A DNA stretch of 60,762 nucleotides, the filler included, from Candidatus Woesearchaeota archaeon (lineage in GTDB: Archaea; Nanobdellota; Nanobdellia; Woesearchaeales; GCA-2685855), in the NCBI GenBank assembly GCA_002685855.1. It is 4 parts of 4 records of this genome, joined end to end, with 100 filler letters (N's around TTAATTAATTAA, not from the genome) between each part and the next. Parts side by side here need not be neighbours in the genome. Positions count along the whole stretch, not along the records: positions 9,146 to 17,007 come from NYYS01000008.1; 3 more parts are not named here. One strand, 5' to 3'. A program made the translations under genes and the position numbers. Position 1 is the first letter of the stretch; every line of letters begins with the position of its first letter. This document shows, piece after piece, positions 9,046 through 52,223 of the stretch. The notes under the pieces were generated by a model that worked only from the letters and a program-made list of their open reading frames with translations, was not told the DNA's origin and made no database searches.

Positions 9046-9145
9046 NNNNNNNNNNNNNNNNNNNNNNNNNNNNNNNNNNNNNNNNNNNNTTAATTAATTA
9101 ANNNNNNNNNNNNNNNNNNNNNNNNNNNNNNNNNNNNNNNNNNNN
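9046..9145. other. Artificial contig linker
   Basis: 44 N + TTAATTAATTAA (stops in all six frames) + 44 N. Confidence 0.98.
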
Positions 9146-9765
9146 AGATGAGCAGATAAGGGAATAAACTCTGCCTGCGAATAGTCTGATACAAACTGTG
9201 CAGTGGTCAGAAAGGGATCGGACTCACCAACATCCGAGAGCATATTGAGTGTTAACAGTGATTGAGAATTTGCAACCAACGTCGAGTTCTGTATTGTATA
9301 GGAATATTCTGTTGCCAGGTTCGCTGTTGGAAAGGCAGAGAGATAGTTTTTAAATATCTTATCAAGGAGGATCTTATAAGTATCTTTATGATCTTCTGGA
9401 AAACACTCTGTTTCATTCGTATTCCACAAAGGATAGATATACACCCCACACTGATAGATTCCTGTTCCATGTTCTGTTCCCTCTCCTTCAAGAAGACCTT
9501 GTTGAATCAATTCATCATATCCTTTATCTGCTGAAACCGCTAATGCGCTGTCAAGATAGGTATAGATCTGATGTTGATGCTCGAATACACGAAGGAGTGC
9601 ATCCTGCCGTTCCCCAAGCGGCCGTTCAAGCGCCTTCTTCTCCTGAGCATATTTCAGGCTGAACTGGACAAATGCAGCTACCAGAATGACAAAAGCTACT
9701 GCTACAATCCCTAAGGGAAGGATCGGAACATACCCTTTCTTATTTCTTTTTTTGGAACGGCGCAT
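9146..9765 (-). CDS. Pilin-like protein with class III signal peptide, 3'-truncated by contig end
   Basis: MRRSKKRNKKG|YVPILPLGIVAVAFVIL: basic leader, Gly, hydrophobic helix. Confidence 0.75.
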
Positions 9766-10306
9766 TTTCTTCTACTTTTTCTATACATACAACCAGGTTG
9801 ACAACATCCCCTGACAGGTACAAAGGTATCGGCTGGATGATAACAGTACTTGTTTCTAAATTATTCCTATCACACAAAGATTGTATTGCTCCTGCAAACC
9901 AGGGAATTGTTGATCCTGTTTTCCAGTGAGGACTTTGTTTTTCAAGCTCCTTTGTTGTAAAAAGGCTTGCCCAGTAATACTTACGACTACCCGGAAAATA
10001 AGTAGGGAAAAACTGGGTGTTGAACTTTTCTGAAAAAATCTGTCCATACTCAGGGTGGAGTTCTGCCTTGCTTATGACCTCTACAAGAGTTAGCTGTTCC
10101 CCCTTATGCATAAAGGGTTGATTGATGAATCCTTCAACTAAAAGGTGAGGAACATGATTATTAAATTTCTGTTCTATCATGTTCTGTTTTGATTTTCCTG
10201 TAAGAAAGAAGAGCATAAAGAAGATAAGAAAAACTCCCAGCCATAAAAACCAGATATAGAAGTCTATAAGAAATGACTGCCCTTTCCGGTTTTTTCTATG
10301 TTTCAT
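9740..10306 (-). CDS. Pilin-like protein with class III signal peptide
   Basis: MKHRKNRKG|QSFLIDFYIWFLWLGVFLIFF. Confidence 0.75.
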   Translation of the reverse strand: MKHRKNRKGQSFLIDFYIWFLWLGVFLIFFMLFFLTGKSKQNMIEQKFNNHVPHLLVEGFINQPFMHKGEQLTLVEVISKAELHPEYGQIFSEKFNTQFFPTYFPGSRKYYWASLFTTKELEKQSPHWKTGSTIPWFAGAIQSLCDRNNLETSTVIIQPIPLYLSGDVVNLVVCIEKVEENAPFQKKK

Positions 10307-10307
10307 C

Positions 10308-10811
10308 TTAATTTGGTGTAATCGCGCTCACTGTAAGCATCCCATTCCGTAATCCAGTTTCACTGCTGTAGCGTATGGGGATTTCCCATTCAGTTTTTTT
10401 AGCACTGCCCGATCCTCCTAGGCCTCCTGACGCAACCACATCCCATCGCTCATACCATTGTCCATTAATAAACCCCGCCTGTGTTCTGCCCTCGATCGGA
10501 AGAGAGAGCTTTGCTGCGATAATGCGGTCAAAATCAAAATGAAACACCTCATCCAGGTGCTCATTACTGATTCTCTCTGGATCTATAACACCGGGAGTTA
10601 CTCTCCCTGTCAGAGGATCCTTCCACAAAATACCGTGCGGATTATAGAGAATCTCTGTAATCAATAAATCCCGTTCCATACCCTGAGTGTTCAGGCTGTT
10701 TACGACAAAAAAAGAGAAGAGAAATGCTACACTTCCCAGCACAATTCCTGCAAAGAGAATACGCACTACTGTAATAAAGAAATATTTTGCATCTGCTCCT
10801 TTTCTGTTCAT
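10308..10811 (-). CDS. Pilin-like protein with class III signal peptide
   Basis: MNRKG|ADAKYFFITVVRILFAGIVL; 1-nt gaps to both neighbours. Confidence 0.72.
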   Translation of the reverse strand: MNRKGADAKYFFITVVRILFAGIVLGSVAFLFSFFVVNSLNTQGMERDLLITEILYNPHGILWKDPLTGRVTPGVIDPERISNEHLDEVFHFDFDRIIAAKLSLPIEGRTQAGFINGQWYERWDVVASGGLGGSGSAKKTEWEIPIRYSSETGLRNGMLTVSAITPN

Positions 10812-10812
10812 C

Positions 10813-11700
10813 TTAATCCCGTTTGGTAAATATCTTTACTGCCTCTGCAACAGCTTTTCCGACAGCATCTCTTTTTGATGAGTTGAGTGCATCATACTCT
10901 TCTTGTGTCCCCAGCTCTACATATATCGATATCTTGTCATTAGCATAGACATTTTTCATCTCATCTTCACCAGGTCTTAACTCTCCAACATAGATCTCCT
11001 CAAAGTATTCCTCATCAATCTCTCGCAACTCTAAAGCCAGGAGACATGCCAGGACCTGACTAGGTATGGGATTTTTCTTTGTGTAAAGGACAGTAATACC
11101 TTCTTCTTCTGAATAATCAAGATATGCTGCCAGGTCTGACCCCGCCACCATATTTCTTGTTTCGTGATCTGTTCGCTGCAAGTATTGCTCTGCTATTGTC
11201 GCCTCATTCTTCAAGTCGAGATCTTTGCCTATATGAACCTTCATTTCCTGATCCAGGCGGAGACCTGGACAACCTTCCTCTCCTTTTTCCTCAAACGTAA
11301 AACTGATCGAGTCTGCAATTTTTTGCATCTGAAAATAAATAGGTGTCATTGAGATATTTTCAACAGTAAAATCCTTATTATGCGGATAATAGACCTGGGA
11401 ACGTTCTGTCTTTGAATGAAAGGAACTATCTATTAAAGTGACAACACCCGGCTCAAAATCCACTCGAAAAAAGTGGTTTGTGCCTGTAAAGCCGTACTCA
11501 GTTGAAAAGTCTCCCTGTGCTGCCTCCATCAGGCCAAGCTGGTAGGCCAGATCCTTTGCATAGTAGGTTCTCCAATATGTCGTGTCCTCGATCTGGCCCT
11601 TCATATAGCCACCCATAGCTAGAAAGATAAGAACCACTGCCCCTATCTCAAAGAAGATACGTAGAATACCCTGTTCTTGGCCCTTTTTTCCTCGAAACAT
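10813..11700 (-). CDS. Pilin-like protein with class III signal peptide
   Basis: MFRGKKG|QEQGILRIFFEIGAVVLIFL; ATG at 11700 with TTTAAAA about 25 nt upstream. Confidence 0.72.
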   Translation of the reverse strand: MFRGKKGQEQGILRIFFEIGAVVLIFLAMGGYMKGQIEDTTYWRTYYAKDLAYQLGLMEAAQGDFSTEYGFTGTNHFFRVDFEPGVVTLIDSSFHSKTERSQVYYPHNKDFTVENISMTPIYFQMQKIADSISFTFEEKGEEGCPGLRLDQEMKVHIGKDLDLKNEATIAEQYLQRTDHETRNMVAGSDLAAYLDYSEEEGITVLYTKKNPIPSQVLACLLALELREIDEEYFEEIYVGELRPGEDEMKNVYANDKISIYVELGTQEEYDALNSSKRDAVGKAVAEAVKIFTKRD

Positions 11701-11741
11701 AGCCAATTTTAAGAGAACCTGTTTTAAATGTTTTGCGGGAA

Positions 11742-13160
11742 TCAGTCTTCTACCTGGCAGCCCTCTACAGGTTCGGTGTCAAATCCACAGGGATCGCGGT
11801 CCCAGATCCATTTCTTGATATAGTCCTTGCATTCGCACTTGTTACCATCACATTGCACACCAGACCAAAATTTCCACCAAGCTCCATCTCCTGCTTTAGG
11901 ACAGTCTCCACACACATAATCATCCCCATTATAGATAGGAACACACCTCTTCAAAACCTTATCATCTGACACTCCACAGCTATTCAGGACACAGTTGTTT
12001 TCATTATGATAAGCAGAACACTCATTCTTCTCTCTCACTCTAGCACAATCATCTATTTCAGTGTATGCATAGACCGGCTCAAACTCTTTAAATTCATTAT
12101 TTTCAGGTTTCGGCCCCTCACTATTGCAAAATCCTCTGCCATATTTCATTCCGCCGCAATTGCAGGGCTCATCCTCATAGAGAAGGTTTGCTCCTAATGG
12201 ACAATCCTCGATACGTCTTGGCTTGCAGATCTGTTCATCCTTAGTATAGACGCAGGCGATCTGGGTATCAACAGAATAGCCTTCACATTCCTCTTCCAAT
12301 GTAAGAACCGCATCATGATACTGGTCCGCACACCCACAGAGACTCGTATCAGGACATCGTTGAAGAAACTTCTTTCGTCTCTCTGTTTCATCAGAGACTT
12401 TATCAAAATAAATAAGATGCGTCTTTTTTCCTCCAATGTTTACAACCCTCTTATCAAGGTAAACATCCTGGAGTCCCCAATCACGTACGACGCTCAGAGT
12501 CCAATCTTTGCACCACTTATCTCCACCGATAATTGAAAGATAGCTATAAGGAAGAGCATCGATCACCGGATCAGGCTGATCAGGTGTGGTGTCTGTACGT
12601 TTTGCACCGGTGCTTCGGGCCTCTTCTGACAAATATATCTTTAACGTCCAGGTAAAATCTTTATCAACATCCCTATAATGACTTGCAAATTTTATTGATT
12701 CATCTTTAGCTATTGGAAACAGCTCACACAAAATGATATGCTTATCTCGTTCAGCCTCGTTTGAAAAAAAATCAGGGGATTCGTAGAGACAAAGACAGGC
12801 GACCTCTCCGCATTGTTTAGGCTTATATGCTTCTGAATTAATACATTGATCCATCTCAGGTTCTATCTTAAAATCTTTAAAAGGCCCTGAATCCCACCCT
12901 ACCACGATTCTATCGCCTGGAAGATGAAAGAGAAAATCAGTAGACACATAATCTTCATTCGACAGAAGAAGCAGCTCTACAGCATTTGCTAACAACTCCA
13001 TATTCACCCGGGAAGCATCATCAACACTATCCTCTGTGATTGTTTTAAACAGCTTGTTCCATACTGCAAAGGTTACGACAAGAATAATGGCTACGAGTAC
13101 AAGTCCGATCACAGCCTGAATGATTAAACTCTGTGCCCGTTTATTCAGGGAGAACCTCAT
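11742..13160 (-). CDS. Large Cys-rich pilin-like/adhesin protein
   Basis: MRFSLNKRA|QSLIIQAVIGLVLVAIIL; C-terminal half very Cys-rich. Confidence 0.75.
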   Translation of the reverse strand: MRFSLNKRAQSLIIQAVIGLVLVAIILVVTFAVWNKLFKTITEDSVDDASRVNMELLANAVELLLLSNEDYVSTDFLFHLPGDRIVVGWDSGPFKDFKIEPEMDQCINSEAYKPKQCGEVACLCLYESPDFFSNEAERDKHIILCELFPIAKDESIKFASHYRDVDKDFTWTLKIYLSEEARSTGAKRTDTTPDQPDPVIDALPYSYLSIIGGDKWCKDWTLSVVRDWGLQDVYLDKRVVNIGGKKTHLIYFDKVSDETERRKKFLQRCPDTSLCGCADQYHDAVLTLEEECEGYSVDTQIACVYTKDEQICKPRRIEDCPLGANLLYEDEPCNCGGMKYGRGFCNSEGPKPENNEFKEFEPVYAYTEIDDCARVREKNECSAYHNENNCVLNSCGVSDDKVLKRCVPIYNGDDYVCGDCPKAGDGAWWKFWSGVQCDGNKCECKDYIKKWIWDRDPCGFDTEPVEGCQVED

Positions 13161-13166
13161 GCATAT

Positions 13167-13784
13167 TTACTCCATTTTAACAGTAATATATTCTGCTTTG
13201 ACAATGCCCTGTGTATCCTGTCCCCAGAAGGAAACCTGGTAGAGTTTATTATCCTCGTGAAACGTGAACGATAGGTCGTTAAACTCTTCACCACAACCAT
13301 AAATCTCATAATCCTCTTTCATCTTGTGCTTTCCTTTGAGAAGTTCTATTTTGAGATTACAGTCAAAAAACTCATCTATTCCTTCAACCCGGATGCCATA
13401 CTCTCCCCCCTCCAGCTCTACTGTATCTTTTTCATCCTTCATAGTAAGAAGATTTTTTTCATCACCATCTCCTTTTATCAGTATCTCGATGCTTTCATCA
13501 GATTTTGAGGGACAACAGACCCCATCTATCGGATCCCCCCGATCAGAGGTACAAGCCGATTTTGCTCCGGGCACATCTTTTCCTCTTTCCTTGCAGAACT
13601 CTGAATTTGGCACACACGTTCCTCCTTTTGACTCACACTCACCAACAGAACTGGTTGTTCCTCTTACGAGGTCCATCACGTCAGTCTGCCAGAAGATAAC
13701 GGCTAATGCTGCTGCTATTCCAATAATAATAAGTATCATCATGTCGATTGCTATACCCTTTTTTGATCCTATGAGTTTTTTCAT
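13167..13784 (-). CDS. Pilin-like protein with six-Cys module and C-terminal beta-rich domain
   Basis: SKKG|IAIDMMILIII; C-x6-C-x6-C-x13-C-x11-CC. Confidence 0.78.
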   Translation of the reverse strand: MKKLIGSKKGIAIDMMILIIIGIAAALAVIFWQTDVMDLVRGTTSSVGECESKGGTCVPNSEFCKERGKDVPGAKSACTSDRGDPIDGVCCPSKSDESIEILIKGDGDEKNLLTMKDEKDTVELEGGEYGIRVEGIDEFFDCNLKIELLKGKHKMKEDYEIYGCGEEFNDLSFTFHEDNKLYQVSFWGQDTQGIVKAEYITVKME

Positions 13785-13807
13785 CCTATCACATCTTTTT
13801 ACATTGA

Positions 13808-14104
13808 CTATACCATTACCTCTTCAGGAACCACGCAGCAATAGGGTTCTTCCTTTGGACAGCTCCGATGTTTTCGCTCGCCGGTTTTTGGGTCTTTTAT
13901 CAGGATCTCTCCCAGCTTTGTATCACAACTTGATACACAGTCGCTTCCTAACACACCCTGACTGCAGTTCTCAATATATCCTTTGATGTCCTCTTCGATC
14001 GGGTCTTTAGTGTCGAAAAACAGGGCAAGCGCTGCCCAGACAAGTGCTACGGCAATAATAATTGCAATGAGTATTCCAATACTTACCTCTGCTTTTCTTA
14101 CCAT
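13808..14104 (-). CDS. Small pilin-like protein with six-Cys module
   Basis: MVRKA|EVSIGILIAIII; C-x8-C-x3-C-x21-C-x6-CC. Confidence 0.78.
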   Translation of the reverse strand: MVRKAEVSIGILIAIIIAVALVWAALALFFDTKDPIEEDIKGYIENCSQGVLGSDCVSSCDTKLGEILIKDPKTGERKHRSCPKEEPYCCVVPEEVMV

Positions 14105-14109
14105 TCATC

Positions 14110-16200
14110 TTACCTAATATTATTTCGAATACACTCGCAAGCATTACAATCATATCCTGATCCGCCGCATTCTCTGTTGCTCCAGTAGCCATTCTCTTTT
14201 TCACACTCTTCTTCATCCTCTAAATACTCATTTCCGCATACTGCAGAGGGCAAATTCTGTTCTTCAGGCACTCCATTTCCAAAGACGTCCTGGGGAAGTG
14301 CGCAGAGTTTCTGCCCGGATTCATAGTTGATTACTACATCTGCCATAAATGTTCCACGGGTTACATCTGAATAGCCTGCTGTTGAGTTAGGACAATCTCT
14401 GTCTGAATCAAATACACCATAATAGATGTCCATGCAAGCAAGCGTTCCTAAATAACAGTCAAGCGTAACAATATGATTATTTAGCCACCGATCAAAGGTG
14501 CCGAGTATTTTTACTGTGGGCGGGTCTATCTTCAGACTGGTTGAATCATGCTTCATACCATCATCAACATCGAGACAGAGATAGCTTGCTTTCTGTCCAT
14601 CACGTGATTTGAGCGTGCCAACACGTTCCTGTTCTCGTTCCCGTTCTTCATCGGCAATAAGAATCCAGGGAATTTGCACATTTGGGCATCCGGCCTTGTT
14701 GTCAAATTTGTAGGAAAGAAAATTATCACAGCCGCAGGGATCAAAATTGTTGCTGTCCTTGCAGACAAGTTCCACAGTTGTCTTAGTTCTTCCGAGTCGA
14801 ATAATTGCCTCAGGATCTCCGGTGTTGTCCTTTGCTGTGCAGGTAAGCGGCTTACACTTATCACGTTTAAAATAGCCATGATCCCAGTAGCAATCCATGC
14901 CCTGGCAGGTGCTGCTTGCTGCTTCACAGCTTTCTCCATCCTTAAAGTCGCTGCAACTCTCACAGGCCTGGCATTTTTTCTCTTTGTAGTTATAAGTACA
15001 CGTTCCTATGAGCTGATCACAGGGTGAAGGATAGGCACATTCCTCCATATTTCTGATCTGACTGCATTGGTCATACAAACAGAGATCTTCCGGAATCTCA
15101 GGAGGTGTCCAGCGAAGATAGGTACAGGAAGAAAAATCATCCGGGCTTCTGAACTGTTCAACAGAGGATTCCTTTCCAAAGCCTGTTCCTTTAAAGCAGA
15201 GTTTCGCTGTGTCTTCAGCAAGGGGAACAGGAGCATCAATCTTCAGATTCGGTTCGCAAGCATGCATGCTGTCTGCAACGCCATAGAAGAGCGTTCCACA
15301 CTCCTCTGTTCCATAGCTACACGAAACATCGCAGAACTCGCCACTTGTACTGAGAAGAATCTCAAATTCATCAAATCCGGGTCCACCGGGCCTGCCCGGC
15401 GGTGCAATCGAAAGAAAATTGGTTGTGCTTTCCAGGGCGGTTTCTCCTTTTTCATCCCAGACACGAAGATCGAGCTTGAAGAGTTCGCTATCTTTTGATC
15501 CATCTGTAACATGTTCCACACGAGGCACATAGTAGAGGATTTGTGCTTTCTCCTCACCCTCGCAGGGTTCGCGTGCAATCTGCACCTTTGCATTATCCTC
15601 GATCGTTTTTCGGGGTTGTTGATTGTCTAGAATATAGACACTACATTTCTTTCCCTCTCTTCCCTCTTCTACCCAGGCACGAAAGGCATAGAGCTGCCCA
15701 TAGGCCAAGGGAAGTTGAGCTGAGAGCGACAATTGTTTTACTTCATCGATCTTGTCCGGATCAGTATGAGGAGGAGTTCCTACAAACTTCCCATCCTTTG
15801 CATCATACCCGGGTTCCAGATCCCGAAAGGTGAGCATCTCAAAGTGCATCCCACCTTTCAAAAGGGGAGGACTATCTCCATCCCCCTCATCACCTGAATC
15901 ATCTCCCACATAGCCCGCACAGCAGACCAGATTTTCATCGTCATTATTGCACGTTGCTCCCGGAATCACATATTTCCCGCGAAGCTTGCAATCATCCTCT
16001 AGTTTACATACACCACTCCCCATAGGAAGCCCCAGGGTTGAACAGCTCGAGCCCACCTCTTTTAGGAGAACAAACTTGTCGCGAAGCGCAATTCCTATAA
16101 TAAAAAGAACTAACAATCCAATCACAAGCAAAACCATGGACCGTACAGCCACCCCCTTCTTTCCCCTTCCTCCTCTAAGAATCCTTTGATAGATGTTCAT
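14110..16200 (-). CDS. Large multi-domain Cys-rich pilin-like/adhesin protein
   Basis: Start moved to MNIYQR at 16200. RGKKG|VAVRSMVLLVIGLL, six-Cys module C-x11-C-x5-C-x12-C-x8-CC, further Cys-rich repeats, terminal VCGNEYLEDEEECE (DUF4215-like). Confidence 0.78.
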   Translation of the reverse strand: MNIYQRILRGGRGKKGVAVRSMVLLVIGLLVLFIIGIALRDKFVLLKEVGSSCSTLGLPMGSGVCKLEDDCKLRGKYVIPGATCNNDDENLVCCAGYVGDDSGDEGDGDSPPLLKGGMHFEMLTFRDLEPGYDAKDGKFVGTPPHTDPDKIDEVKQLSLSAQLPLAYGQLYAFRAWVEEGREGKKCSVYILDNQQPRKTIEDNAKVQIAREPCEGEEKAQILYYVPRVEHVTDGSKDSELFKLDLRVWDEKGETALESTTNFLSIAPPGRPGGPGFDEFEILLSTSGEFCDVSCSYGTEECGTLFYGVADSMHACEPNLKIDAPVPLAEDTAKLCFKGTGFGKESSVEQFRSPDDFSSCTYLRWTPPEIPEDLCLYDQCSQIRNMEECAYPSPCDQLIGTCTYNYKEKKCQACESCSDFKDGESCEAASSTCQGMDCYWDHGYFKRDKCKPLTCTAKDNTGDPEAIIRLGRTKTTVELVCKDSNNFDPCGCDNFLSYKFDNKAGCPNVQIPWILIADEEREREQERVGTLKSRDGQKASYLCLDVDDGMKHDSTSLKIDPPTVKILGTFDRWLNNHIVTLDCYLGTLACMDIYYGVFDSDRDCPNSTAGYSDVTRGTFMADVVINYESGQKLCALPQDVFGNGVPEEQNLPSAVCGNEYLEDEEECEKENGYWSNRECGGSGYDCNACECIRNNIR

Positions 16201-16208
16201 TCTAAAAC

Positions 16209-16466
16209 TCACGTAGTTGAGAGGAGCGGACAACAGACATCTTTGCTATTCTTACCGCAGATATCTTCCCCCTCAATGCCTTTGTCTTTACAATCACCGC
16301 TTGGAACACACTTCCCTCCTTTTGAGGGGCATTTTGTGCCTTCATTAAAGTTTGAAGCTCCGCCTGAAACCAAATAGATGATCACGACCAACACAAGAAT
16401 CCCTATAACAGCAATAATCAGAAAGTTCATGCCGATTTCTACGCCTTTTTTTGAGGAGGGAACCAT
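16209..16466 (-). CDS. Small pilin-like protein with six-Cys module
   Basis: SSKKG|VEIGMNFLIIAVIGILVLVVII; C-x6-C-x5-C-x10-C-x7-CC; GAGGT RBS. Confidence 0.82.
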   Translation of the reverse strand: MVPSSKKGVEIGMNFLIIAVIGILVLVVIIYLVSGGASNFNEGTKCPSKGGKCVPSGDCKDKGIEGEDICGKNSKDVCCPLLSTT

Positions 16467-16476
16467 ATTTCCGACC

Positions 16477-16728
16477 TCAATCCTTTGCTCCTAAAGGAAT
16501 GCAACAAGGATTCTCATTTTCACAGCCCTTTGTAATATCTTTGATATATCCAGAATCACACGTATCACCTTGGTCACAATCACCGCCTACACCCTGACAG
16601 TTGGTTCCTGTTGCAACATTTCCTCCTGCTCGAAGCAAAAGCACTGCTAAAATTACCAATACTAAGAGCGCAATCGCTGCAATAATAATTACATTCATAG
16701 AAATTCCTTGACCTTTCTTGTTCATCAT
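16477..16728 (-). CDS. Small pilin-like protein with six-Cys module; first gene, candidate major pilin
   Basis: MMNKKG|QGISMNVIIIAAIALLVLVIL; C-x6-C-x5-C-x11-C-x5-CC; GAGGTG RBS at 16737-16732. Confidence 0.85.
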   Translation of the reverse strand: MMNKKGQGISMNVIIIAAIALLVLVILAVLLLRAGGNVATGTNCQGVGGDCDQGDTCDSGYIKDITKGCENENPCCIPLGAKD

Positions 16729-16777
16729 CAGCACCTCACAAAGTATACTACCAATATGTTTTTTCTATTTAGCTTCC

Positions 16778-16785
16778 TATTTAAA
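16778..16785 (-). promoter_or_regulatory. TATA box of the pilin-like array
   Basis: Minus strand AAACC-TTTAAATA, same form as the proS promoter, about 50 nt upstream of the first gene. Confidence 0.55.
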
Positions 16786-16804
16786 GGTTTCTGTCGCCAG
16801 CCAC

Positions 16805-17007
16805 CTATTCTTCCAGAACAAGGGTATAAAGCTCTCTTTTCTCCCTTTTTTCATCAAAATCAATACATTCCACCTTCAGATCCTGCTTTCCCTCACTTCC
16901 CCTGATTTCTTCTGATTTATAGCTTCTCTGGACTGTTCTGCAGCGTTTCAAGCAGGGAGAGGACTTCATCTTCTCATCAGGTTCCCAGATTCCTGCTACC
17001 TCATTCC
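16805..17007 (-). CDS. C-terminal fragment of a hypothetical protein, truncated by the contig end
   Basis: Open minus frame NEVAGIWEPDEK...ELYTLVLEE* runs from the linker to the TAG at 16807-16805. Confidence 0.6.
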
Positions 17008-17107
17008 NNNNNNNNNNNNNNNNNNNNNNNNNNNNNNNNNNNNNNNNNNNNTTAATTAATTAANNNNNNNNNNNNNNNNNNNNNNNNNNNNNNNNNNNNN
17101 NNNNNNN
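17008..17107. other. Artificial contig linker
   Basis: N44-TTAATTAATTAA-N44. Confidence 0.98.
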
Positions 17108-17108
17108 T

Positions 17109-18671
17109 GAGTTCAATTTTAGTGTTGATAATACTGCTCCTCCGAACGCGACCTTTTTTAACGTGAGTGATGCGGCATCGTCTGGTAATGCGGAGCTTGT
17201 ATGGGTCGATTCAGTAGGAGAAGCCAATGAAGTCTACAGGGTCTACAGAGGTACAGGTGTTGGCGGAGACTTTAATGGCAGTAATTTCAGTACTCAGGCC
17301 TTCCTTGTAGCAACAGTGGGTCAGGGCGTGACTAATTGGACTGATAATAGTACTGTTGCAGGTCAGACCTACTGGTATGGTTTGTTGACAATCGATTCAA
17401 CAGGCAACTTTGATAACACAAGCTTTACAGGAACAAGAAGTGTTGTTGCCAACGATACACGTGCTCCGACGCTTCTTACCATTACTGTAACAAACAGGAG
17501 TGATGGAGCGAATCAGGTGAACTGGAGTGCAAGTGCGCGAGCCATGAAGGATGTAATAGGGTATGCTGATTGGAATCATAGTAATGTCACCTATATGGTG
17601 TGGAGAAGCACGACTAATTGGTCTCAGCTCAATTCGACTGTGGGTGACACTTCAAACTTTAGTGTGAACATTGGGAATGTGACAGGCAACACGCTCTGGT
17701 ATGTGGATGCCAGTCCGGGTCTTGCGAATGTTGTGAAGTATTATGCAGTCACCATGATAGATGATTCCAACAGAAGTAATCATAGTTTGAACCATAGTAA
17801 TACGATTGCTGCAACAAACAGGAACTGTAGTAATGTGTTCAACTACGGAAGCTATGGTGCGTGTTCAAACAGTTTGCAGTCTCAGACAGGAACTAGAACC
17901 TGTTACACAGACTCTACAACCTTGACAAACACAAGAAGTTGTACTTCAACATCCGTTGCAACCTCATCATCAGGCGGTGGTGGCGGAGGCGTCACTATTG
18001 AAGGAAGTGCAGGTCATGGGTGGAGTTCGGTCGCTGCTGGTGAGCCTGTGACATGGGCTATTTCAAACAGTAAACTTGACATAACTCAGATTGACTTTAC
18101 CTTAGCGACTGACTCGAGTGATGTTGACTTAACTGTTTCCAGTTACACAGGGAAGCCCGCTGCTGTTGTGAGTGAGCCGGTAAGCTTAGTATCGCAATAC
18201 CTACAGATTGAAACAGAGAATGTAGATGATCTTGAATCTGCTACACTAACGTTTACTGTTGCAGATAGTTGGCTAACAGAGAATAGTGTTACAAAGGACG
18301 ATATTACCTTGTGGCATTATGATGATGTGGCTGATACCTGGAGTGCAGAAGATACAAATCTGGTAAGTAGTGATGAAACGCTCCATTACTATGAAGCAAC
18401 TACTGATTCGTTTAGCTATTTCGCTATCGGTGTAAAGGCAGAAGAAGAGGCAGAGGCTGAAGAAGGAGAAGAAGCCGAAGAAGCCGAAGAGGCAGACGAT
18501 GTAGCCCCTGCAGAAACTCCCTCAACTCCGCCGACTACGCCAACGCCTGCTCCAGAAGGTGCGAGTAGCGCATGGGTATGGATCTTAGTGTTGGTTATCG
18601 TAGTGATCGGAGGCCTTGTCTACTACTTTGTTTACATGCGCCCAGGCGACAAGGGACCTGTTAAGTTTTAG
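17109..18671 (+). CDS. PGF-pre-PGF domain cell-surface glycoprotein, 5'-truncated
   Basis: Frame open from the contig start; many NxS/T sequons; FnIII-like segments; SSSGGGGGG linker; YYEATTDSFSYFAIG; acidic and Pro/Thr spacer; C-terminal TM. Confidence 0.85.
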   Translation, partial: EFNFSVDNTAPPNATFFNVSDAASSGNAELVWVDSVGEANEVYRVYRGTGVGGDFNGSNFSTQAFLVATVGQGVTNWTDNSTVAGQTYWYGLLTIDSTGNFDNTSFTGTRSVVANDTRAPTLLTITVTNRSDGANQVNWSASARAMKDVIGYADWNHSNVTYMVWRSTTNWSQLNSTVGDTSNFSVNIGNVTGNTLWYVDASPGLANVVKYYAVTMIDDSNRSNHSLNHSNTIAATNRNCSNVFNYGSYGACSNSLQSQTGTRTCYTDSTTLTNTRSCTSTSVATSSSGGGGGGVTIEGSAGHGWSSVAAGEPVTWAISNSKLDITQIDFTLATDSSDVDLTVSSYTGKPAAVVSEPVSLVSQYLQIETENVDDLESATLTFTVADSWLTENSVTKDDITLWHYDDVADTWSAEDTNLVSSDETLHYYEATTDSFSYFAIGVKAEEEAEAEEGEEAEEAEEADDVAPAETPSTPPTTPTPAPEGASSAWVWILVLVIVVIGGLVYYFVYMRPGDKGPVKF

Positions 18672-19188: not shown

Positions 19189-19719
19189 ATGAAAGAATCA
19201 CATAAACACCCCACACCTCCTTCCTCAAAGGAAGGCTCGAAAAAGCCTTCCAAAGAGGAATCCAAGCAGAAAAAGAGCAAAGAAGAGATCCTTAAAGAGC
19301 AAAATAAGGAGCTTACAGACCACCTTCAGCGACTCCAAGCAGAATTTGAAAACTCAAAAAAGAGAGCAGAAAAAGAAAAAGAAGGAGCTATCATCAAAGA
19401 AAAACACACCCTCCTCCTTCGATTCCTGCCTTTCCTGGACTCATTCGAAGAAGCGCTTAAAGCGCATCCAGATGAGATACCAGAAATACAACTCCTCTAC
19501 AAACAGATCAAACTCATCTTTGAGGAACTAGGTATTACATCCATCGAAGCCAAAGGAAAACACTTTAACCTACACTACCATGACGCTGTCCTCCAACAGC
19601 CATCAGACAAAGAACCAAACACAATAATTGAAGAGATCCAAAAAGGATATCTCCACCACAACATTGTATTGCGACACAGTAAGGTGATTGTTGCCAAACC
19701 ACAAGAACCAACAGAATGA
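19189..19719 (+). CDS. grpE: Nucleotide exchange factor GrpE
   Basis: LQRLQAEFENSKKR, FLPFLDSFE, HDAV, EEIQKGY...LRHSKVIV; lies upstream of dnaK. Confidence 0.93.
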   Translation: MKESHKHPTPPSSKEGSKKPSKEESKQKKSKEEILKEQNKELTDHLQRLQAEFENSKKRAEKEKEGAIIKEKHTLLLRFLPFLDSFEEALKAHPDEIPEIQLLYKQIKLIFEELGITSIEAKGKHFNLHYHDAVLQQPSDKEPNTIIEEIQKGYLHHNIVLRHSKVIVAKPQEPTE

Positions 19720-20270
19720 AGATCACAATTCACACAACGCCTGAAGAGGCAAAAGAACTAGGAAAAACATGCAATAAATCAGGACACTGCTGCAAATACA
19801 GCGGAGGCATCGTACTCAATGAAGATATCCCCCGCATCAGTACACACCTTGAAATGACAGAAGAGGGATTCAAAAAACACTACCTTAACCAACATACACG
19901 GTTCAACACCACACACTGGATCCTCAACACAAAAAAAACAAACAAACCTTACGGGCCCTGCATCTTCCTTGACAAAAACCTGTGCAGCATCCATGAAGTA
20001 AAACCCCTCTATTGCAAAGTGGGCACCTGCTGCGATGAAGAAGTCGGAGATCAACTCATCCAATGGTTCAACATACACCATTTTGTCAACATCGATGATC
20101 CTGTATCACTCAGAGAATGGGCACTCAGCACAGAAAACAAAAAACTCATACAAGGAGCGCATATCAAAGAACTCCTCACAGAAGAGGAATATAACGCCAT
20201 CATGACATACCAGGAACTTCAACATAACACAAAACAAGAACAGCACCAAAAATCACATCAAGAAAAATAA
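19716..20270 (+). CDS. YkgJ/CxxCxxCC family cysteine-cluster protein
   Basis: CNKSGHCC, PCIFL, CSIHEVKPLYCK; ATGA overlap with grpE. Confidence 0.85.
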   Translation: MKITIHTTPEEAKELGKTCNKSGHCCKYSGGIVLNEDIPRISTHLEMTEEGFKKHYLNQHTRFNTTHWILNTKKTNKPYGPCIFLDKNLCSIHEVKPLYCKVGTCCDEEVGDQLIQWFNIHHFVNIDDPVSLREWALSTENKKLIQGAHIKELLTEEEYNAIMTYQELQHNTKQEQHQKSHQEK

Positions 20271-20284
20271 AACTGGAGAAAAAA

Positions 20285-20647
20285 ATGAAAACACCCCCAA
20301 CAAAAACACCCCCCAAACAAAGTAAAGTCTACTATCTCAAAGCAGGAGCAATCCTCCGTTATCTCATAGCAGAAGATGAACAACTTACCACTTTCATCAC
20401 CTGCAAAGCATCCCATCTTCCACTCATCACAACTGAAAAAGACCTCTATGAAGCACTAGGAAGCATTCAATCAGAGGACAACTTTCAACTCAACAAATTG
20501 GTAAAACTCCTGGAAGTCGTAGAAGTAACCAGCTACAGAAGAGAAACAGGAAAACCAAAACCCCTACTTAAAGAAGAGATCGTAAAACAACTACGATCAT
20601 TCGCACTACAACCAAAAAAAGAAACACGAGGTACAAAAAATGAGTAA
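20285..20647 (+). CDS. Hypothetical protein, possibly a degenerate PIN-like fold
   Basis: 120-aa ORF overlapping the dnaK start by 8 nt. Confidence 0.7.
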
Positions 20648-22517
20648 AATAATCGGAATAGATCTTGGAACTAGCAATTCAGCAGCCGCGTTTTTAGATG
20701 CAGCAAAACCAAAAATAATCCCTTCAGCAGAAGGAGCAACACAATACGGAAAAGCATTCCCCTCAGTCGTAGCCTTTGCAGAAGGCGACCAAATACTTGT
20801 AGGAGAACCGGCCCGAAGACAGGCAGTAACAAACCCAAACAACACAATAGTAGCCGCAAAACGAAAAATAGGAACAAAACACACCTGGAAAATAAATGGC
20901 AAAGACTACACCCCACAACAGATCTCTGCCTACGTACTCCAAAAAATCAAACGAGACGCAGAAGAATTCCTCGGAGAACCCGTAGAAAAAGCAGTCATCA
21001 CCGTACCCGCATACTTCGACGACGACCAACGCCAAGCAACAAAAGACGCAGGAACCATAGCAGGCCTCGAAGTAATCAGAATCGTCAACGAACCAACAGC
21101 AGCAGCACTCGCATACGGACTCGACAAATCAGAAAAAGAACACACGGTCCTCGTCTTTGACTTCGGAGGAGGAACCCTCGACGTAACAACCATGGAATTC
21201 GGAGAAGGAGTATTCGAAGTAAAATCAACATCAGGAGACACCCAACTCGGAGGAACAGACATGGACAACGTCATCCTCGACTATCTCGCCGACGAATTCA
21301 AAAAACAAAGCGGAATCGACATAAAAAAAGATCCCGCAGGTTTGCAAAGGCTCAGAGAAGCAGCAGAAAAAGCAAAGATTGAACTCAGCACAACTCTAGA
21401 AACAGAGATCAACCTGCCCTACCTCTCTGCAAACAACAACGGCCCTCAACACCTCAACCTAAAGCTAAACAGAGCAAAAATAGATGAACTTGTACAACCC
21501 ATTGTAGAAAGATGCAGACACCCTATAGAACAAGCACTAAAAGACGCAAACCTTACAGCAGAAAAAGTAGACAAGATCATCATGGTAGGCGGTCCAACAC
21601 GAATGCCTATCGTCCAAAGCTTTGTAGAAGAGATCATCGGAAAGAAAACAGAACGTGGAATTGACCCGATGGAATGCGTAGCAATGGGAGCAGCAGTCCA
21701 GGCAGGCGTACTCGCAGGAGACATCAAAGATGTATTACTCCTCGATGTAACCCCTCTCAGCCTCGGCATCGAAACACTTGGCGGCGTCTTCACCAAACTC
21801 CTCGAACGAAACACCACTGTACCCACAAAAAAAGCACAGGTCTTCAGCACAGCAGCAGATAACCAACCTGCAGTAACAATACGCGTATTCCAGGGAGAAC
21901 GACCCATGGCAGGAGACAACAAACTCCTCGGACAGTTCGATCTTGTAGGAATACTCCCTGCACCACGAGGAATCCCCCAGATCGAAGTCACCTTTGACAT
22001 AGACGCAAACGGAATCATTCATGTAACAGCAATAGACAAAGCAACAAACAAAGAACAAAGCATCCGAATAAGCTCAAGCCAAAAACTCTCAGATGATGAC
22101 ATCGAACGCATGAAAAAAGAAGCAGAAGAAAATGCAGAAACAGACAAAAAAAGAAAGGATGAAGCCGAAATCATCAACCAGGCAGACACCTTAGTCTACA
22201 CAACCGACAACCTCTTCAAAGAGATGAAAGACAAAATCGACAAAAAAGAAGTAGAACCCATCAAAAAAGAGATCGAAGAGCTTAAAAAGCTCCTCCAAGA
22301 AGAGAAAAAAGACACAACAGCCATAAAGAAAAAAACAGACGAAATACAGGAAAAAGTCCAAAAGATGAGCACTGAGCTCTACCAAAAGGTCGCTGAAGAA
22401 CAGGCAAAACAGCAACAACAAAAACAAGAACAACCAAAACAACAAACAAAAGATGGCAAGGAAACAGTAGACGCAGACTTTCAGGAAGTCAAAAAAGAGA
22501 AACCAAAGAAGAAGTAA
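20640..22517 (+). CDS. dnaK: Chaperone DnaK (Hsp70)
   Basis: [54 protein letters not shown]. Confidence 0.98.
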
Positions 22518-22548
22518 TCCCTTCTTCTTTACATCTCTTACCAAAGAA

Positions 22549-23643
22549 ATGACAAAAGACTATTACCAAACCCTAGGAGTGGACAAAAACGCCACAAAAG
22601 AAGAGATCAAACGAGCCTACAAACGCCTCGCAAAAAAACACCATCCCGACCTCAACAAAAAAGAAGGATCCACAGAAACCTTCAAAGAGATCAACGAAGC
22701 CTTCTCAGTACTAGGCGACGAAAAGAAAAAACAGCACTACGACCAGTTCGGAACAGCAGACGCACAAGGATTCGACCAGGGATTCGACTTCTCAGGATTT
22801 GGCGGAGGAGGATTCGAAGACATCTTCAGCCAATTCTTCGGAGGCGGAGGAAGAGGAGGAAGACAACGCGCAACAGGCAGCGACCTTCTCTACCAACTCG
22901 AAATCACCCTCGAAGAAGCATCCACCGGCATCCAAAAAACCATACAGATCGTAAAAAACGACACCTGCGAAAGCTGCGAAGGAGAAGGAGGAAAAGGAAT
23001 CCAAACCTGCTCAACCTGCAAAGGAGCCGGCAGAGTCACACAAACCAAACGAAGCCCCTTCGGCATCTTCCAAACAACAACCACCTGCCCTCATTGTAAA
23101 GGAGAAGGAAAAGATATCCAACATCCCTGCTCAGACTGTAACGGAATAGGCGTCTCCCGCCAAAAAAAAGAGCTCGAAGTAGACCTCCCCGCCGGCGTAG
23201 ACAACGGCAACAGACTCAGAATATCCGGAGAAGGAGAAGCAGGATCCCGAAACGCAGGAAAAGGAGACCTCTTCGTCGAAATCAGAATAAAACAACACCC
23301 CTACTTCAAACGAGACGAAACTGAACTCATCCTGGAAACACCCATCAGCTTTATCCAGGCAGCCATCGGAACCACCATAGAAGTACCCACAATCGACGGA
23401 AAAGCAAAACTAAAAATTCCTCCAGGAACACAAACAGGAACAACCTTCTCCATGAAAAACAAAGGTATGCCCTCCCTCAGAGGCTATGGAAAAGGAAACC
23501 AGCACGTCATCGTCAACATAGTAGTACCAAAAAAACTCAACAAAAAACAGGAAGAATCCCTCAAAGAATTCGGAAAACTCATTGGAGAAAAGGTAACCCC
23601 CCAAAAAGGCTTCTTCGACAAGTTGAAAGAGAGTCTTACTTAG
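22549..23643 (+). CDS. dnaJ: Chaperone DnaJ
   Basis: J domain with HPD, G/F region, four CxxCxGxG repeats. Confidence 0.98.
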   Translation: MTKDYYQTLGVDKNATKEEIKRAYKRLAKKHHPDLNKKEGSTETFKEINEAFSVLGDEKKKQHYDQFGTADAQGFDQGFDFSGFGGGGFEDIFSQFFGGGGRGGRQRATGSDLLYQLEITLEEASTGIQKTIQIVKNDTCESCEGEGGKGIQTCSTCKGAGRVTQTKRSPFGIFQTTTTCPHCKGEGKDIQHPCSDCNGIGVSRQKKELEVDLPAGVDNGNRLRISGEGEAGSRNAGKGDLFVEIRIKQHPYFKRDETELILETPISFIQAAIGTTIEVPTIDGKAKLKIPPGTQTGTTFSMKNKGMPSLRGYGKGNQHVIVNIVVPKKLNKKQEESLKEFGKLIGEKVTPQKGFFDKLKESLT

Positions 23644-28804: not shown

Positions 28805-29033
28805 AAACAAAGGTGAAAAGAACTCCTATATAAACATTGGTTTTGTTGTTTACTCGGAAGTGGTGTTTTTACTATCTTTGTTAAACAACCAACACGTGCT
28901 TTTTCACCACCAAAAAAGACGACAACCCTTTCTTTTTAAGTGTATTCACTTTTGAATAGAAATGTTTATATACTACTTTGCGTTTAGACATCTAACATCT
29001 TTTTCCCAAAAAAATAGGTGTGAGGGTATAACT

Positions 29034-30329
29034 ATGAAACTTTTGAATGTAAATGAAAAAGGTTTGAAAACTATGTTTTCAAAAAAAGCCGCAATAATTT
29101 TGCCACTACTCTTATTCTTAATCACTGCATGCACCGGTACAGATCCAACAGGAGCAGCAATTGGTGACATTACCTGTGTAGAAGGAGCTGTCCTCATCAA
29201 CGGAACATGCGTCTTCCTTGACGATACAAGCTTTCCAACAGGGGAGGAAACTCCAACAGAAACACCGATGGAGCCAACAGATGAACTCCCTACAGAAGAA
29301 CCCTCTGAACAAGACTATGAAGATGCAGACGTTGTCTACGAAGTCATCGAAGGAGAACTCGTTGACATCAAACCAAAAGTAAGAGACCCTGACGGAGACA
29401 GACTCGAATATACCTACAGCACACCATTTTCCACAAACGGAAAATGGCAAACAAAAGACGGCGATGCAGGAAGACACCTCGCCACCATCACTGTATCAGA
29501 TAACGAATTCAGCGTAACCCAGGACGTCCTCATCATCATAAACCCTGCAAACAAAGCACCTGTAGTAGAATGCGAAGAAGAAATATTTGTCAAAGAAGGG
29601 GAACTCGTAGACCTCAACTGTAACATCTATGACCCTGAAGGAGACAACGTAATCGTAAGCTACGGCGGATGGATGAGCAAAAGCACAAAACAAACAACCT
29701 TTGACGACGAAGGAGTATACACCGTCCTTGTAAAGGCATCAGACCCAGAACGATCAACAAGCAAAGAGATCATCATAACCGTAAGCGATGAAAACAGAGC
29801 TCCAGAGATCGATCCACTTGAAGACCTCACACTAATGGAAACAGAAAAAGTAGTAATCAAGCCAATAGTGTCAGATCCAGACGGAGACATCGTTGAAACA
29901 ACCTTTTCAGAACCACTTGACGAAAACGGCATCTGGATCACAGAAGATGGCGACTCAGGAAGCTACGACATCCTCATCACAGCAACAGACGGAACAGCAA
30001 CATCCACAACAACCTTCAAACTAATCGTAACAGACATCAACACCGCTCCAGTCATGGAACGCATCCAGGACATCACTGTAGACGAAGGCGACACTGTAAC
30101 CATCTCGCCAAAAGTTGAAGATCCAGAAGGAGACGAAGTAACAATAAAATACACGGGCTGGATGACAGTAGAACAAAAAACAACCGACTACGATGACGAA
30201 GGAGAATACACAGTAACCGTAACTGCAAGTGACGGAGAACTCGAAACAAGCCAGGTTGTCAAGATCACAGTCCAAGACAAGAACAGGCCACCCTGCTTCT
30301 GTCTCGACCCAATCTGTAGCAACTGTTAA
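29034..30329 (+). CDS. Surface lipoprotein with four tandem Ig/cadherin-like repeats
   Basis: LITAC lipobox-like motif; four repeats of about 82 aa with DP[DE]GD and N[KRT][AP]P; GGTGTGAGG RBS before the ATG at 29034. Confidence 0.85.
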   Translation: MKLLNVNEKGLKTMFSKKAAIILPLLLFLITACTGTDPTGAAIGDITCVEGAVLINGTCVFLDDTSFPTGEETPTETPMEPTDELPTEEPSEQDYEDADVVYEVIEGELVDIKPKVRDPDGDRLEYTYSTPFSTNGKWQTKDGDAGRHLATITVSDNEFSVTQDVLIIINPANKAPVVECEEEIFVKEGELVDLNCNIYDPEGDNVIVSYGGWMSKSTKQTTFDDEGVYTVLVKASDPERSTSKEIIITVSDENRAPEIDPLEDLTLMETEKVVIKPIVSDPDGDIVETTFSEPLDENGIWITEDGDSGSYDILITATDGTATSTTTFKLIVTDINTAPVMERIQDITVDEGDTVTISPKVEDPEGDEVTIKYTGWMTVEQKTTDYDDEGEYTVTVTASDGELETSQVVKITVQDKNRPPCFCLDPICSNC

Positions 30330-41817: not shown

Positions 41818-41917
41818 NNNNNNNNNNNNNNNNNNNNNNNNNNNNNNNNNNNNNNNNNNNNTTAATTAATTAANNNNNNNNNNNNNNNNNNNNNNNNNNN
41901 NNNNNNNNNNNNNNNNN
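41818..41917. other. Artificial contig linker
   Basis: N44-TTAATTAATTAA-N44. Confidence 0.98.
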
Positions 41918-49682: not shown

Positions 49683-50663
49683 TCAGGACTTCACTTTTTT
49701 TACGAGTTTTTCTACTGTCTTTACAATATTGATTGCTTTTAATCCTGATTCAGCCAAGAGTTCTCCTCCCGATCCGGATTGGCCAAATCCCTTCATACCT
49801 ATACGGATCAGAGGCACAGGATGTTGTTCAGAAAGGACCTCCCCCACTGCACTCCCCAAGCCACCATTAATCTGATGTTCTTCTGCTGTTACAATACAGC
49901 CTGTTTTTTTAACAGAGTTTACAAGGGCAGCACTATCTAAGGGTTGAAGCGTGTGAACATTGATTACTTCTGCAGATATACCTTGTTTTTCTAATTCCTG
50001 AGCTGCAAGAACAGCTTCATAGACCAGTACGCCACAGGCTGCAATAGTGACATCGGTTCCCTCAACAAAGATTTCTGCTTTTCCTAGTTCAAAAGGTGTT
50101 TCTTTTGTTGTCAGAGTAGGTACTTTCAGTCTTCCTCCTCTGAGATAGCAGGGCCCTTCTTTTTGTGCAATTGCAAGAGTGGCTTTTCGCGCTTCTTCTG
50201 CATCAGAAGGTATCACAACGATAAGACCTGGAAGCGATCTTGTAAGTGCAAGATCTACCAGCATCTGGTGGGTTGCTCCATCTTCGCCAACAGTTACTCC
50301 TGCGTGTCCACCGTAGACTTTTACATTCGCATCTGACATAACAACACTTACTCTAAGCTGATCAAAGTTTCTTCCAGGATTAAATGCCGCAAAGCTGTTT
50401 ACAAAAGGGATCTTTCCTGTAAAACTTAATCCTGCTGCAACCCCCATCATGTTCTGTTCTGCCACGCCAAGTAAAAAGAAGCGGTCTGGATACTTTTTTT
50501 GAAAGGCATCGACTTTACAGCTTTCTGTGAGATCTGCACTCAGGACAACCACCTGTTTGTTTTTTCCTGCTTCAATAACTCCTCTTCCATAGCCTGATCG
50601 TGTTGCATCAGAGGGGAGTCCTTCTAGAGACTCTGCTAGTTTAAGTAAGGGATTTAGTTTCAT
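49683..50663 (-). CDS. tkt: Transketolase, C-terminal subunit
   Basis: GVAEQNM, GEDGATHQ, TAEEHQINGGLG. Confidence 0.93.
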   Translation of the reverse strand: MKLNPLLKLAESLEGLPSDATRSGYGRGVIEAGKNKQVVVLSADLTESCKVDAFQKKYPDRFFLLGVAEQNMMGVAAGLSFTGKIPFVNSFAAFNPGRNFDQLRVSVVMSDANVKVYGGHAGVTVGEDGATHQMLVDLALTRSLPGLIVVIPSDAEEARKATLAIAQKEGPCYLRGGRLKVPTLTTKETPFELGKAEIFVEGTDVTIAACGVLVYEAVLAAQELEKQGISAEVINVHTLQPLDSAALVNSVKKTGCIVTAEEHQINGGLGSAVGEVLSEQHPVPLIRIGMKGFGQSGSGGELLAESGLKAINIVKTVEKLVKKVKS

Positions 50664-51508: not shown

Positions 51509-51542
51509 ATATGTTTTTCTCGATTCTATGTTGTTCTTCTGT

Positions 51543-52223
51543 TTATGGTGGGGTGTTTTCTAGAACAATTCTACTAAGTTCCTTGTATGCCTTTTTAGGA
51601 TCTTCTGCACCACTTATATAACTCCCTGAATTTATCTGAGTTACTCCTGCTTTTACGAGTCTACCAAGGTTTTCATTATTTACTCCGCCATCAAGATGGA
51701 TTATTATCTTTGGATCATGTCTTCTCATCAATTTAATTTTTGCGTATACTTCTGGAATAAATTGTTGATGTTCTTTTCCTGGATAGATTCCCATGAAGAG
51801 CATGTGTTCGAGATGTTCTGCAAAGAAATAGGAGGTCTCGACAGGGGTGTCGGGATTAAAGGCTAAGCAAGGAGTCATACCCTCCTTCTTTATCTGATCA
51901 ATTGTGTGGAGTACAGAAGATCGATCATCATTTGACTCATAATGAAATATGATCATCGAAATTCCTTTTTGTTTGAGTTGAGAGAGATATTCATCAGGAT
52001 TCTGGACCATGAGATGGGCTTCATAGGTGTGTCCCTCCTGGTCAAGCAAGGGTATTTCTTCAATTGGCATAGATTTTGCTCCTACAAACGTTCCATCCAT
52101 GATGTCGAGATGAAGAATACTGCTTACAGGAAGAAGGCGCGTCAGTCTTTCTGTAAATTCATCTCTATCTGTAGCAAAGACTGTAGGAATAATTCGAGGC
52201 TGATTAGAGAATGTAGTACTCAC
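51543..52223 (-). CDS. rpe: Ribulose-phosphate 3-epimerase
   Basis: HLDIMDGTFV, EAHLMV, FHYE, MGIYPG, DGGVN. Confidence 0.92.
   Translation of the reverse strand: MSTTFSNQPRIIPTVFATDRDEFTERLTRLLPVSSILHLDIMDGTFVGAKSMPIEEIPLLDQEGHTYEAHLMVQNPDEYLSQLKQKGISMIIFHYESNDDRSSVLHTIDQIKKEGMTPCLAFNPDTPVETSYFFAEHLEHMLFMGIYPGKEHQQFIPEVYAKIKLMRRHDPKIIIHLDGGVNNENLGRLVKAGVTQINSGSYISGAEDPKKAYKELSRIVLENTPP

Follow-up and report, generated by a model that had tools for sequence, protein, structure and literature searches.

The ten-gene array considered here fills contig C8 of a Candidatus Woesearchaeota archaeon genome (GCA_002685855.1), at positions 9146-17007 of the 60,762-nucleotide stretch that was analysed (the window), and its closest described counterparts are archaeal type IV filament (T4F) systems. 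In the accessible parts of the two sources, system 2 with its subsystems 4C/4F (Makarova, 2016, PMC4858521; Sivabalasarma & Albers, 2026, PMC13705601) resembles the array in its VirB11/FlaI-type ATPase with a long N-terminus adjoining a single platform gene, in its many class III proteins and in its large adhesin-like genes. The combination by which system 2/subsystem 4F is recognised, a single platform gene and an N-terminally extended ATPase, was found for the likely motor of the array as well. However, the array has no Pfam or NCBIfam family over cut-off, a likely platform of 700-755 residues that mostly escapes PF00482, 10-20 unrelated subunits and murein hydrolase inserts. The nearest named clusters, DUF7287 and DUF7288, score 0.81 and 0.77 and serve as a lead only. 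A 4F ATPase whose pilins are not identifiable is noted in nanoarchaea in the same part of the earlier source (Makarova, PMC4858521).

The Epd pilus (system 1) of Methanococcus maripaludis likewise has a long pilin operon and Gln at +1, seen in 4/10 leaders here. Its substrates require both Gln+1 and Glu+5 according to the accessible part of the source; in contrast, the array has Glu+5 in 0/10 leaders, and its likely cognate platform is one gene against Epd's two. The array is not an Epd pilus, and the Epd-like locus of this genome is the one on contig C28. The minor pseudopilin tip of the type II secretion system (GspH-I-J-K/XcpU-V-W-X) is encoded by four coupled conserved genes, the last large and with a beta-sheet insertion, which offers an analogy to the last four genes of the array (g7-g10); the likeness lies also in the best structural matches of the g10 core, XcpV and GspK, at low Z-scores. 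In Streptococcus sanguinis PilB/PilC a pilin module is grafted to a functional domain; as far as the available text goes, those domains are adhesin or glycan-binding domains, whereas the array's are wall hydrolases inside the pilin core. Murein transglycosylases of module 98/fam00969 in Woesearchaeota and Pacearchaeota (PMC8204110) and archaeal peptidoglycan hydrolases (PMC12352652) come from the same lineages and have given rise to the same proposal of bacterial-wall contact, but in the accessible parts of these papers the enzymes are giant or secreted and are not tied to pilins, an operon or a motor. The array families may be in the module 98 table of PMC8204110.

The literature searched, which left out most subscription journals, contained no description of the array, of its link to a motor or of murein hydrolases borne on pilins. 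The main text of PMC13705601, in its accessible part, contains none of the words 'Woese', 'Pacearch' or 'peptidoglycan'; its tables hold thousands of Woesearchaeota hits, among which the long ATPase or the platform described below may be present. The cluster is real and conserved, and apparently undescribed in print. We lean towards reading it as a lineage-specific type IV filament with a divergent motor, whose last subunit would display peptidoglycan hydrolases against bacterial walls.

Class III genes of the array

The window joins four contigs of one assembly (953 kb, 66 contigs, 94% complete) with N spacers between them, and C8 (7.9 kb) is flanked by such spacers. Among the sequencing runs listed for it, the one that matches best is a marine metagenome according to its record and may be the source sample, and none is an RNA run. 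All ten open reading frames (ORFs) of C8 lie on the minus strand, and their leaders, [KR][KR][GA] followed by a hydrophobic helix, are present in 10/10 as the sequence-only reading had quoted them (a slash marks the predicted cleavage site). The array opens with two short paralogues, g1 (16477-16728; 83 residues, KKG/QGIS, six Cys) and g2 (16209-16466; 85 residues, KKG/VEIG). Next come g3 (14110-16200; 696 residues, KKG/VAVR), with a g1-like six-cysteine (Cys6) head and a long Cys-rich tail (42 Cys), g4 (13808-14104; 98 residues, RKA/EVSI), of the Cys6 family, g5 (13167-13784; 205 residues, KKG/IAID), with a Cys6 head and a 110-residue tail, and g6 (11742-13160; 472 residues, KRA/QSLI), in which a conserved N-terminal stretch of ~130 residues precedes a variable Cys-rich tail. 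The Cys-poor block consists of g7 (10813-11700; 295 residues, KKG/QEQG), with a degenerate Amidase_3-like domain at its C-terminus, the core subunits g8 (10308-10811; 167 residues, RKG/ADAK), conserved most, and g9 (9740-10306; 188 residues, RKG/QSFL), and g10 (9146-9765; first 206 residues, KKG/YVPI), which holds the N-terminal half of a pilin-like domain and is cut by the contig end. Intergenic gaps from g1 to g10 are 10, 8, 5, 23, 6, 41, 1, 1 and -26 nt.

The leaders carry much of the case for a filament. A genome-wide screen for [KR][KR][GA] plus a hydrophobic helix returned 35 ORFs, ten of them on C8, which makes up 0.8% of the 953-kb assembly; an internal basic pair was followed by G or A in 16% of 3,159 cases; and among 134 gene-8 homologues, picked via a whole-protein profile and not via the leader motif, the -1 column was G, A or S in 123 of 126 ungapped rows. 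The clustering of these leaders therefore exceeds chance. A charged -2, G/A/S at -1 and a hydrophobic helix, the marks of a T4F class III signal in the accessible part of PMC4371748, were found in all ten proteins. Together with the conserved gene order, the peptidase and the motor pair, these leaders support the type IV filament first suggested from the sequence, and the array very probably belongs to the T4F superfamily.

A six-cysteine pattern ending in CC is common to g1, g2, g4 and the heads of g3 and g5. The g1 family has 1-5 copies per locus, with matches in 20/20 genomes tested (several of them N-terminal only), and as the Cys6 proteins are small and multi-copy they are suggested to form a polymer. 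The small Cys6 proteins are probable major pilins, which agrees with the initial assignment. The tails of g3, g5 and g6 had no homologue among the fetched loci, and the tip-adhesin role that the sequence-only reading gave to such Cys-rich proteins stays a suggestion, as does its host attachment. Further genes with class III leaders lie off the array, at C11:1023-1 (a paralogue of a core gene on contig C37, with a PKD domain), C14:11350-13662 (similar to the N-terminal half of g10, among giant Cys-rich genes), C38:1400-1942, C52:8466-6787 and C30:4004-3447.

Conservation and transcription of the cluster

A gene-8 profile matched 41/50 genomes of the same order and 66/150 in the remaining orders of the class, with many weak matches among these 66, and all nine same-order genomes that it missed have gene-1-like matches. 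At 50% identity, the g8 family falls into 1,579 clusters. In gene maps of 13 + 24 + 40 fetched stretches, with slots set by position since iterated family labels drift at the shared N-terminus, one order recurs: secreted giant proteins rich in Cys come first, followed by four conserved class III genes, the Cys6 genes, g6, g7, g8, g9, g10 and RPA, the last being the next gene after g10 in 41/60 loci. Gene order is thus conserved, as the sequence-only reading had proposed to check. Among named records with gene-1 relatives, 16/24 are labelled Ca. Woesearchaeota, Nanoarchaeia or Nanoarchaeota and 8/24 'Methanosarcinales'; we take the latter titles as mislabels because one such record has the gene map of a same-order genome.

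By this comparison, the conserved cluster of Woesearchaeota and relatives is longer than C8, which forms its downstream part, and the g7-g10 block appears as the most conserved core of the cluster. A profile comparison of g8 with g9 gave 14 aligned columns only and was unusable. The upstream part of the cluster in this genome sits at the end of contig C37, and the middle genes (QIKM-, QMEI- and Cys6 families of 260-330 residues) did not turn up in the assembly, which is 94% complete; they probably fall in the gap between C37 and C8. The ten genes are an excerpt of the unit: the contig start truncates a further open frame, whose 66 remaining codons (16805-17007, minus strand; best match weak, E-value (E) 0.19) finish at 16805, and at the other contig end g10 breaks off at 9146. 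Beyond the former end of C8, one record reaches 65 letters further.

Both TATA boxes reported near 16780 and 11725 stood up to scrutiny. The first, TTTAAATA (16778-16785, minus strand), lies ~50 nt before g1 and is the sole strict site on C8; the inner, TATA-like box TTTAAAA (11722-11728, minus strand) precedes g7 and is one of nine loose sites on the contig. A TTTAWA motif occurs upstream of g7 in 25/50 related loci and upstream of g8-g10 in 5-8/50, and g7-g10 overlap in related loci (median -4 nt). An inner promoter before g7 is supported by this conservation and overlap, and of the two arrangements originally offered, one operon or two, the second is favoured. A sigma-70 promoter scan gave 11 sites against 15.0 expected, a bacterial model that is not informative for an archaeon.

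Peptidase and motor

One A24 prepilin peptidase, sought elsewhere in the genome as had been advised, was found on contig C64 (289 residues, PF01478 over cut-off, both Asp motifs, seven helices by crude hydropathy), and a prepilin peptidase is present in 55/56 genomes; the Epd system has a large dedicated one, EppA. The search for PilB/TadC had a more complicated outcome: a canonical pair does exist, on C28, where a 531-residue ATPase and two TadC genes accompany their own Gln+1/Glu+5 pilins, but the likely cognate motor of the array is another. TadC (PF00482) was not found in 14/50 same-order genomes, ten of them among the 41 g8 carriers, and the TadC-less carriers include a single-contig 774-kb genome with a full array. 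In five TadC-less genomes checked, no ATPase of ~530 residues was found, with a weak match of ~620 residues in three; the same five have a long ATPase frame of 717-775 codons.

This long ATPase is followed by a protein with eight transmembrane (TM) segments in 3/4 opened loci, and in the fourth the 8-TM protein is nearby on the same contig. The present genome encodes a 773-residue ATPase on contig C56 (Walker A GTRSAGKT, Asp box and Walker B; FlaI model E 3e-35), with the halves of the 8-TM protein on C56 and C36. Against the FlaI equivalog the ATPase scores 122 bits, under the cut-off of 550 that marks an archaellum motor. The platform is one gene of 686-755 residues, with a PF00482 match of only E 0.016 in 1/4; it matches an annotated haloarchaeal secretion-system protein adjoining its ATPase (E 1e-16), and its database homologues, where named, are called 'hypothetical protein'. 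A PDB sequence search with the platform profile gave no match.

The platform profile is found in 200/201 genomes of the class and in 50/50 of the order, so that its presence alone says little and adjacency is the evidence. The ATPase-platform pair is found immediately upstream of the array, in the same orientation, in 16/20 other-order loci (eight families), and in 3/20 the peptidase is in line after the pilins; these 20 loci were picked for good g8 matches on long contigs and are not a random sample. The reading that fits best takes the array as the subunit half of an operon for ATPase, platform, pilins and peptidase, from which the motor would have moved away in this order, and takes the divergent long ATPase with the 8-TM platform as its likely motor.

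In several genomes, this one included (C56:5141-8206), three tandem paralogues with 4-5 TM segments and two divergent coiled-coil genes stand beside the long ATPase, which in other orders is preceded by genes of similar size; these neighbours are possible further motor parts, with no Pfam match over cut-off. At C17:8250-9465, groEL is immediately followed by a 216-codon fragment from the C-terminal end of a secretion ATPase and then by a Gln+1/Glu+5 pilin, a T4F remnant or a misassembly. The long ATPase has 1,241 residues in one genome (L098:13965-17687) and RadA 806-815 residues in two (L099, L106), probably through inteins.

Peptidoglycan hydrolases in the last subunit

The g10 slot of 46 Woesearchaeota-type loci holds a Pfam-level hydrolase in 25, a weak one in three and none in 18, and the families at this one site are SLT, M23, NlpC/P60, Amidase_2, Amidase_3, M15, 3D and glucosaminidase. 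The 46 exclude five stretches that lack g10, a duplicate, two g10 genes that were short or split and were unscanned, and three loci in which no g10 adjoins g9; the scans used E 0.001 for one set of loci and E 0.01 for the other, 17 of the 46 were found via likeness to gene 1, giving 14 of the 25, and some named records may repeat other genomes. The enzyme sits between both g10 core halves wherever both were located, and several genomes have the gene divided into two at that point. Catalytic residues are mostly kept (SLT Glu in 11/11 rows, M23 HxxxD in 5/5 and HxH in 4/5, NlpC Cys in 4/6). A swappable wall-hydrolase cassette in the g10 slot is, at the level of sequence, well supported. Orthologues of g7 carry Amidase_3 (PF01520) or M23 in some genomes, and in other orders the gene before g7 (the g6 slot) carries SLT, M23 or Amidase_2 in 3/12 loci scanned. 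Some g10-slot proteins bear extra domains: a VgrG3-like C-terminal domain (L072:16285-18030), NAGPA with a GDSL esterase (L081:13961-17539) and TPM (L062:9717-13142).

In this genome, contig C20 is the most likely place of the missing g10 half, which would follow an amidase and a probable lytic transglycosylase there. The first frame of C20 is open over 873 codons, and RPA, YdjM and RadA come after it. With half-profiles built from 19 insert-free g10 orthologues, the N-terminal half picks out g10 of the window (E 9e-8; next ORF 0.09) and the C-terminal half, after one iteration, has the C20 frame as its sole match at E<0.01 (E 5e-8); the proposed join of C8 and C20 rests on these two matches and on RPA being next, as in the other loci. 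Between the halves, the C20 frame carries Amidase_2 (PF01510, 87 bits against a cut-off of 26) and a probable SLT domain. Aligned to AmpDh2, the amidase keeps the Zn ligands His, His and Asp. The SLT stretch has an Atlas language-model match of 0.96, with 25/30 hits to SLT and the catalytic Glu aligned. A second Amidase_2-like match in the genome lies at C12:1082-2329 (E 1e-6). Between YdjM and RadA, C20:2696-2406 encodes an unannotated, conserved protein of ~90 residues with no Pfam or NCBIfam match, which we presume to resemble PC4-like ssDNA-binding proteins.

The fold of the g10 core was modelled from an insert-free orthologue of another order (pLDDT 92.4) and consists of a 73-residue N-helix followed by three antiparallel strands; the point of insertion falls roughly at the turn that connects strands 2 and 3. 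The top three of 48,161 chains are XcpV (Z 4.6, root-mean-square deviation (rmsd) 3.7, 65 aligned), GspK (Z 4.5, rmsd 3.1, 84 aligned) and PilV (Z 4.4, rmsd 2.2, 63 aligned), and type IV pilins make up 10 of the 50 structural matches listed. The case for a pilin fold in this model rests on that enrichment, each Z-score alone being weak. For g8 the model (pLDDT 94.9) shows an N-helix and a sheet of four strands, and no pilin is among the 50 structural matches listed for it.

Proposed mechanism and alternatives

In the mechanism that we propose, the C64 peptidase likely cleaves the leaders of the ten predicted subunits, and the divergent ATPase and 8-TM platform, encoded elsewhere, likely assemble the filament. 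Cys6 proteins of the g1/g2 type would polymerise as its shaft. The g7-g10 proteins, with their own promoter and translational coupling, would form a GspH-I-J-K-like priming or tip complex, with g10 as the K-like cap; the sequence-only reading had them as Cys-poor minor pilins, but they form the most conserved core, and the last gene likely encodes a hydrolase-bearing tip subunit. The g10 protein of this genome, presumably continued on C20, would open or grip bacterial walls with its hydrolases, and the cassette may be swapped between lineages to suit different walls. The cell would attach to living bacteria and feed on them through the filament. We give the display of active hydrolases against living bacteria, taken by itself, at most a slight lean in its favour.

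Several results weigh against this proposal. No read or contig bridges C8 and C20, whose ends are without overlap, and the motor is absent beside the array in every Woesearchaeota-type stretch fetched. The hydrolase is missing from the 18 slots counted above and from 17/17 other-order g10 orthologues, and hydrolysis is therefore dispensable in some carriers. SLT domains occur in 77/201 genomes, many of them off this locus, so hydrolases are not confined to the operon. In this genome the amidase-like domain of g7 is degenerate: an orthologue-built hidden Markov model recognises it (E 7e-9) and Glu is kept, with the Zn histidines not seen. The C20 amidase has Ser at the catalytic Glu of AmpDh2, a position that is Glu in two orthologues; Amidase_2 members of the T7 lysozyme/PGRP type are active without the AmpD-type Glu. 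The C20 SLT domain was not significant in Pfam, in the PDB sequence search or with the SLT profile built here, its support being the language-model match and motifs. The g8 model weakly matches sensor domains (best Z 5.7), the Z-scores of the g10 model are all <5, a range in which the tool warns of common arrangements, and Foldseek on both models gave no match at E 0.001.

The alternative that survives best, though we regard it as unlikely, is that the same machine is a short scaffold, bindosome- or pseudopilus-like, harvesting peptidoglycan of dead cells or vesicles, or an adhesion fibre with wall-binding enzyme domains, and that living bacteria are not attacked. Archaeal class III substrate-binding proteins are displayed on T4F machines, in the accessible part of the 2026 survey (PMC13705601), and the degenerate g7 amidase, the Glu-to-Ser change on C20 and the many carriers without a hydrolase in the g10 slot would all fit this account. 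It is harder to reconcile with the catalytic residues kept in most inserts, with at least eight unrelated hydrolase families at one site, as would be expected under target switching, and with the multi-copy small Cys6 proteins, which suggest a polymer. A DNA-uptake pilus whose hydrolases open the donor wall, suggested by the end of the array beside RPA and RadA (RPA next in most loci, and RPA, YdjM and RadA following on C20), seems to us quite improbable: RPA has its own TATA-like motif in 24/40 loci at a median gap of 68 nt, and ComEC (PF03772) was not found in 5/5 genomes, three of them single-contig relatives, an unknown channel being possible.

Assembly of the ten proteins by the 531-residue ATPase and two TadC proteins of C28, a locus complete in this genome, is most improbable and was dropped as a candidate: the TadC-less carriers, the long ATPase found there with no ~530-residue one, the C28 locus's own pilins and the long-ATPase pair in line with the array elsewhere largely refute it. 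Equally implausible is a membrane-bound coat whose proteins have ordinary Sec signals or type II membrane anchors in place of class III leaders; the strict FlaFind +1/+2 pattern is passed by just 4/10 leaders, a loose A-x-A follows the helix in 3/10 proteins and Pfam and NCBIfam scans of the ten gave nothing above cut-off, with no pilin or archaellin match, but PibD requires G/A/S at -1 with a charged residue at -2 and tolerates variation at +1 (PMC4371748, in its accessible part), the -1 column is conserved among the gene-8 homologues, peptidase and motor genes stand in line with the array in other orders and no lipobox occurs in the ten.

Returning to the hydrolase-bearing filament, one may go further, with more doubt than confidence: a core type IV machine of long ATPase, 8-TM platform and 10-20 pilin-like subunits, so far without annotation, could be shared by nearly all Nanoarchaeia, and in Woesearchaeota and sister orders it might have become a contact weapon with a swappable hydrolase warhead, docking on living bacteria and breaching them, its cassette recording the walls attacked.

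Other features of the window

The artificial N spacers (TTAATTAATTAA core) lie at window positions 9046-9145, 17008-17107 and 41818-41917; they join unrelated contigs, and neighbours across them are not real. A grpE-dnaK-dnaJ cluster is found at 19189-23643 (cf. the DPANN report, PMC8204110, in its accessible part). Two secreted or surface proteins are encoded at 17163-18671 and 28962-30329, one rich in N-glycosylation sites and with a C-terminal anchor, one with Ig-like repeats. A bacterial-type sugar phosphate cluster, identified by reading, spans 49683-54673 and comprises a split transketolase, an epimerase, RpiB, glucose-6-phosphate isomerase and transaldolase.

Biological significance

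The 2026 census (PMC13705601), in the part accessible to us, describes ordered T4F loci as rare in Nanobdellati and the pilins of this group as scattered. The present comparison shows such an ordered locus, ATPase-platform-pilin(-peptidase), and its families escape standard profiles. No host is known for Woesearchaeota or Pacearchaeota, and no archaeal episymbiont of bacteria is known to have been demonstrated. Interchangeable murein hydrolases on a pilus subunit would offer a testable handle on the hosts, as the cassette type may predict the partner. If true, a wall-cutting tip would point to bacteria as the hosts, prey or food of these archaea.

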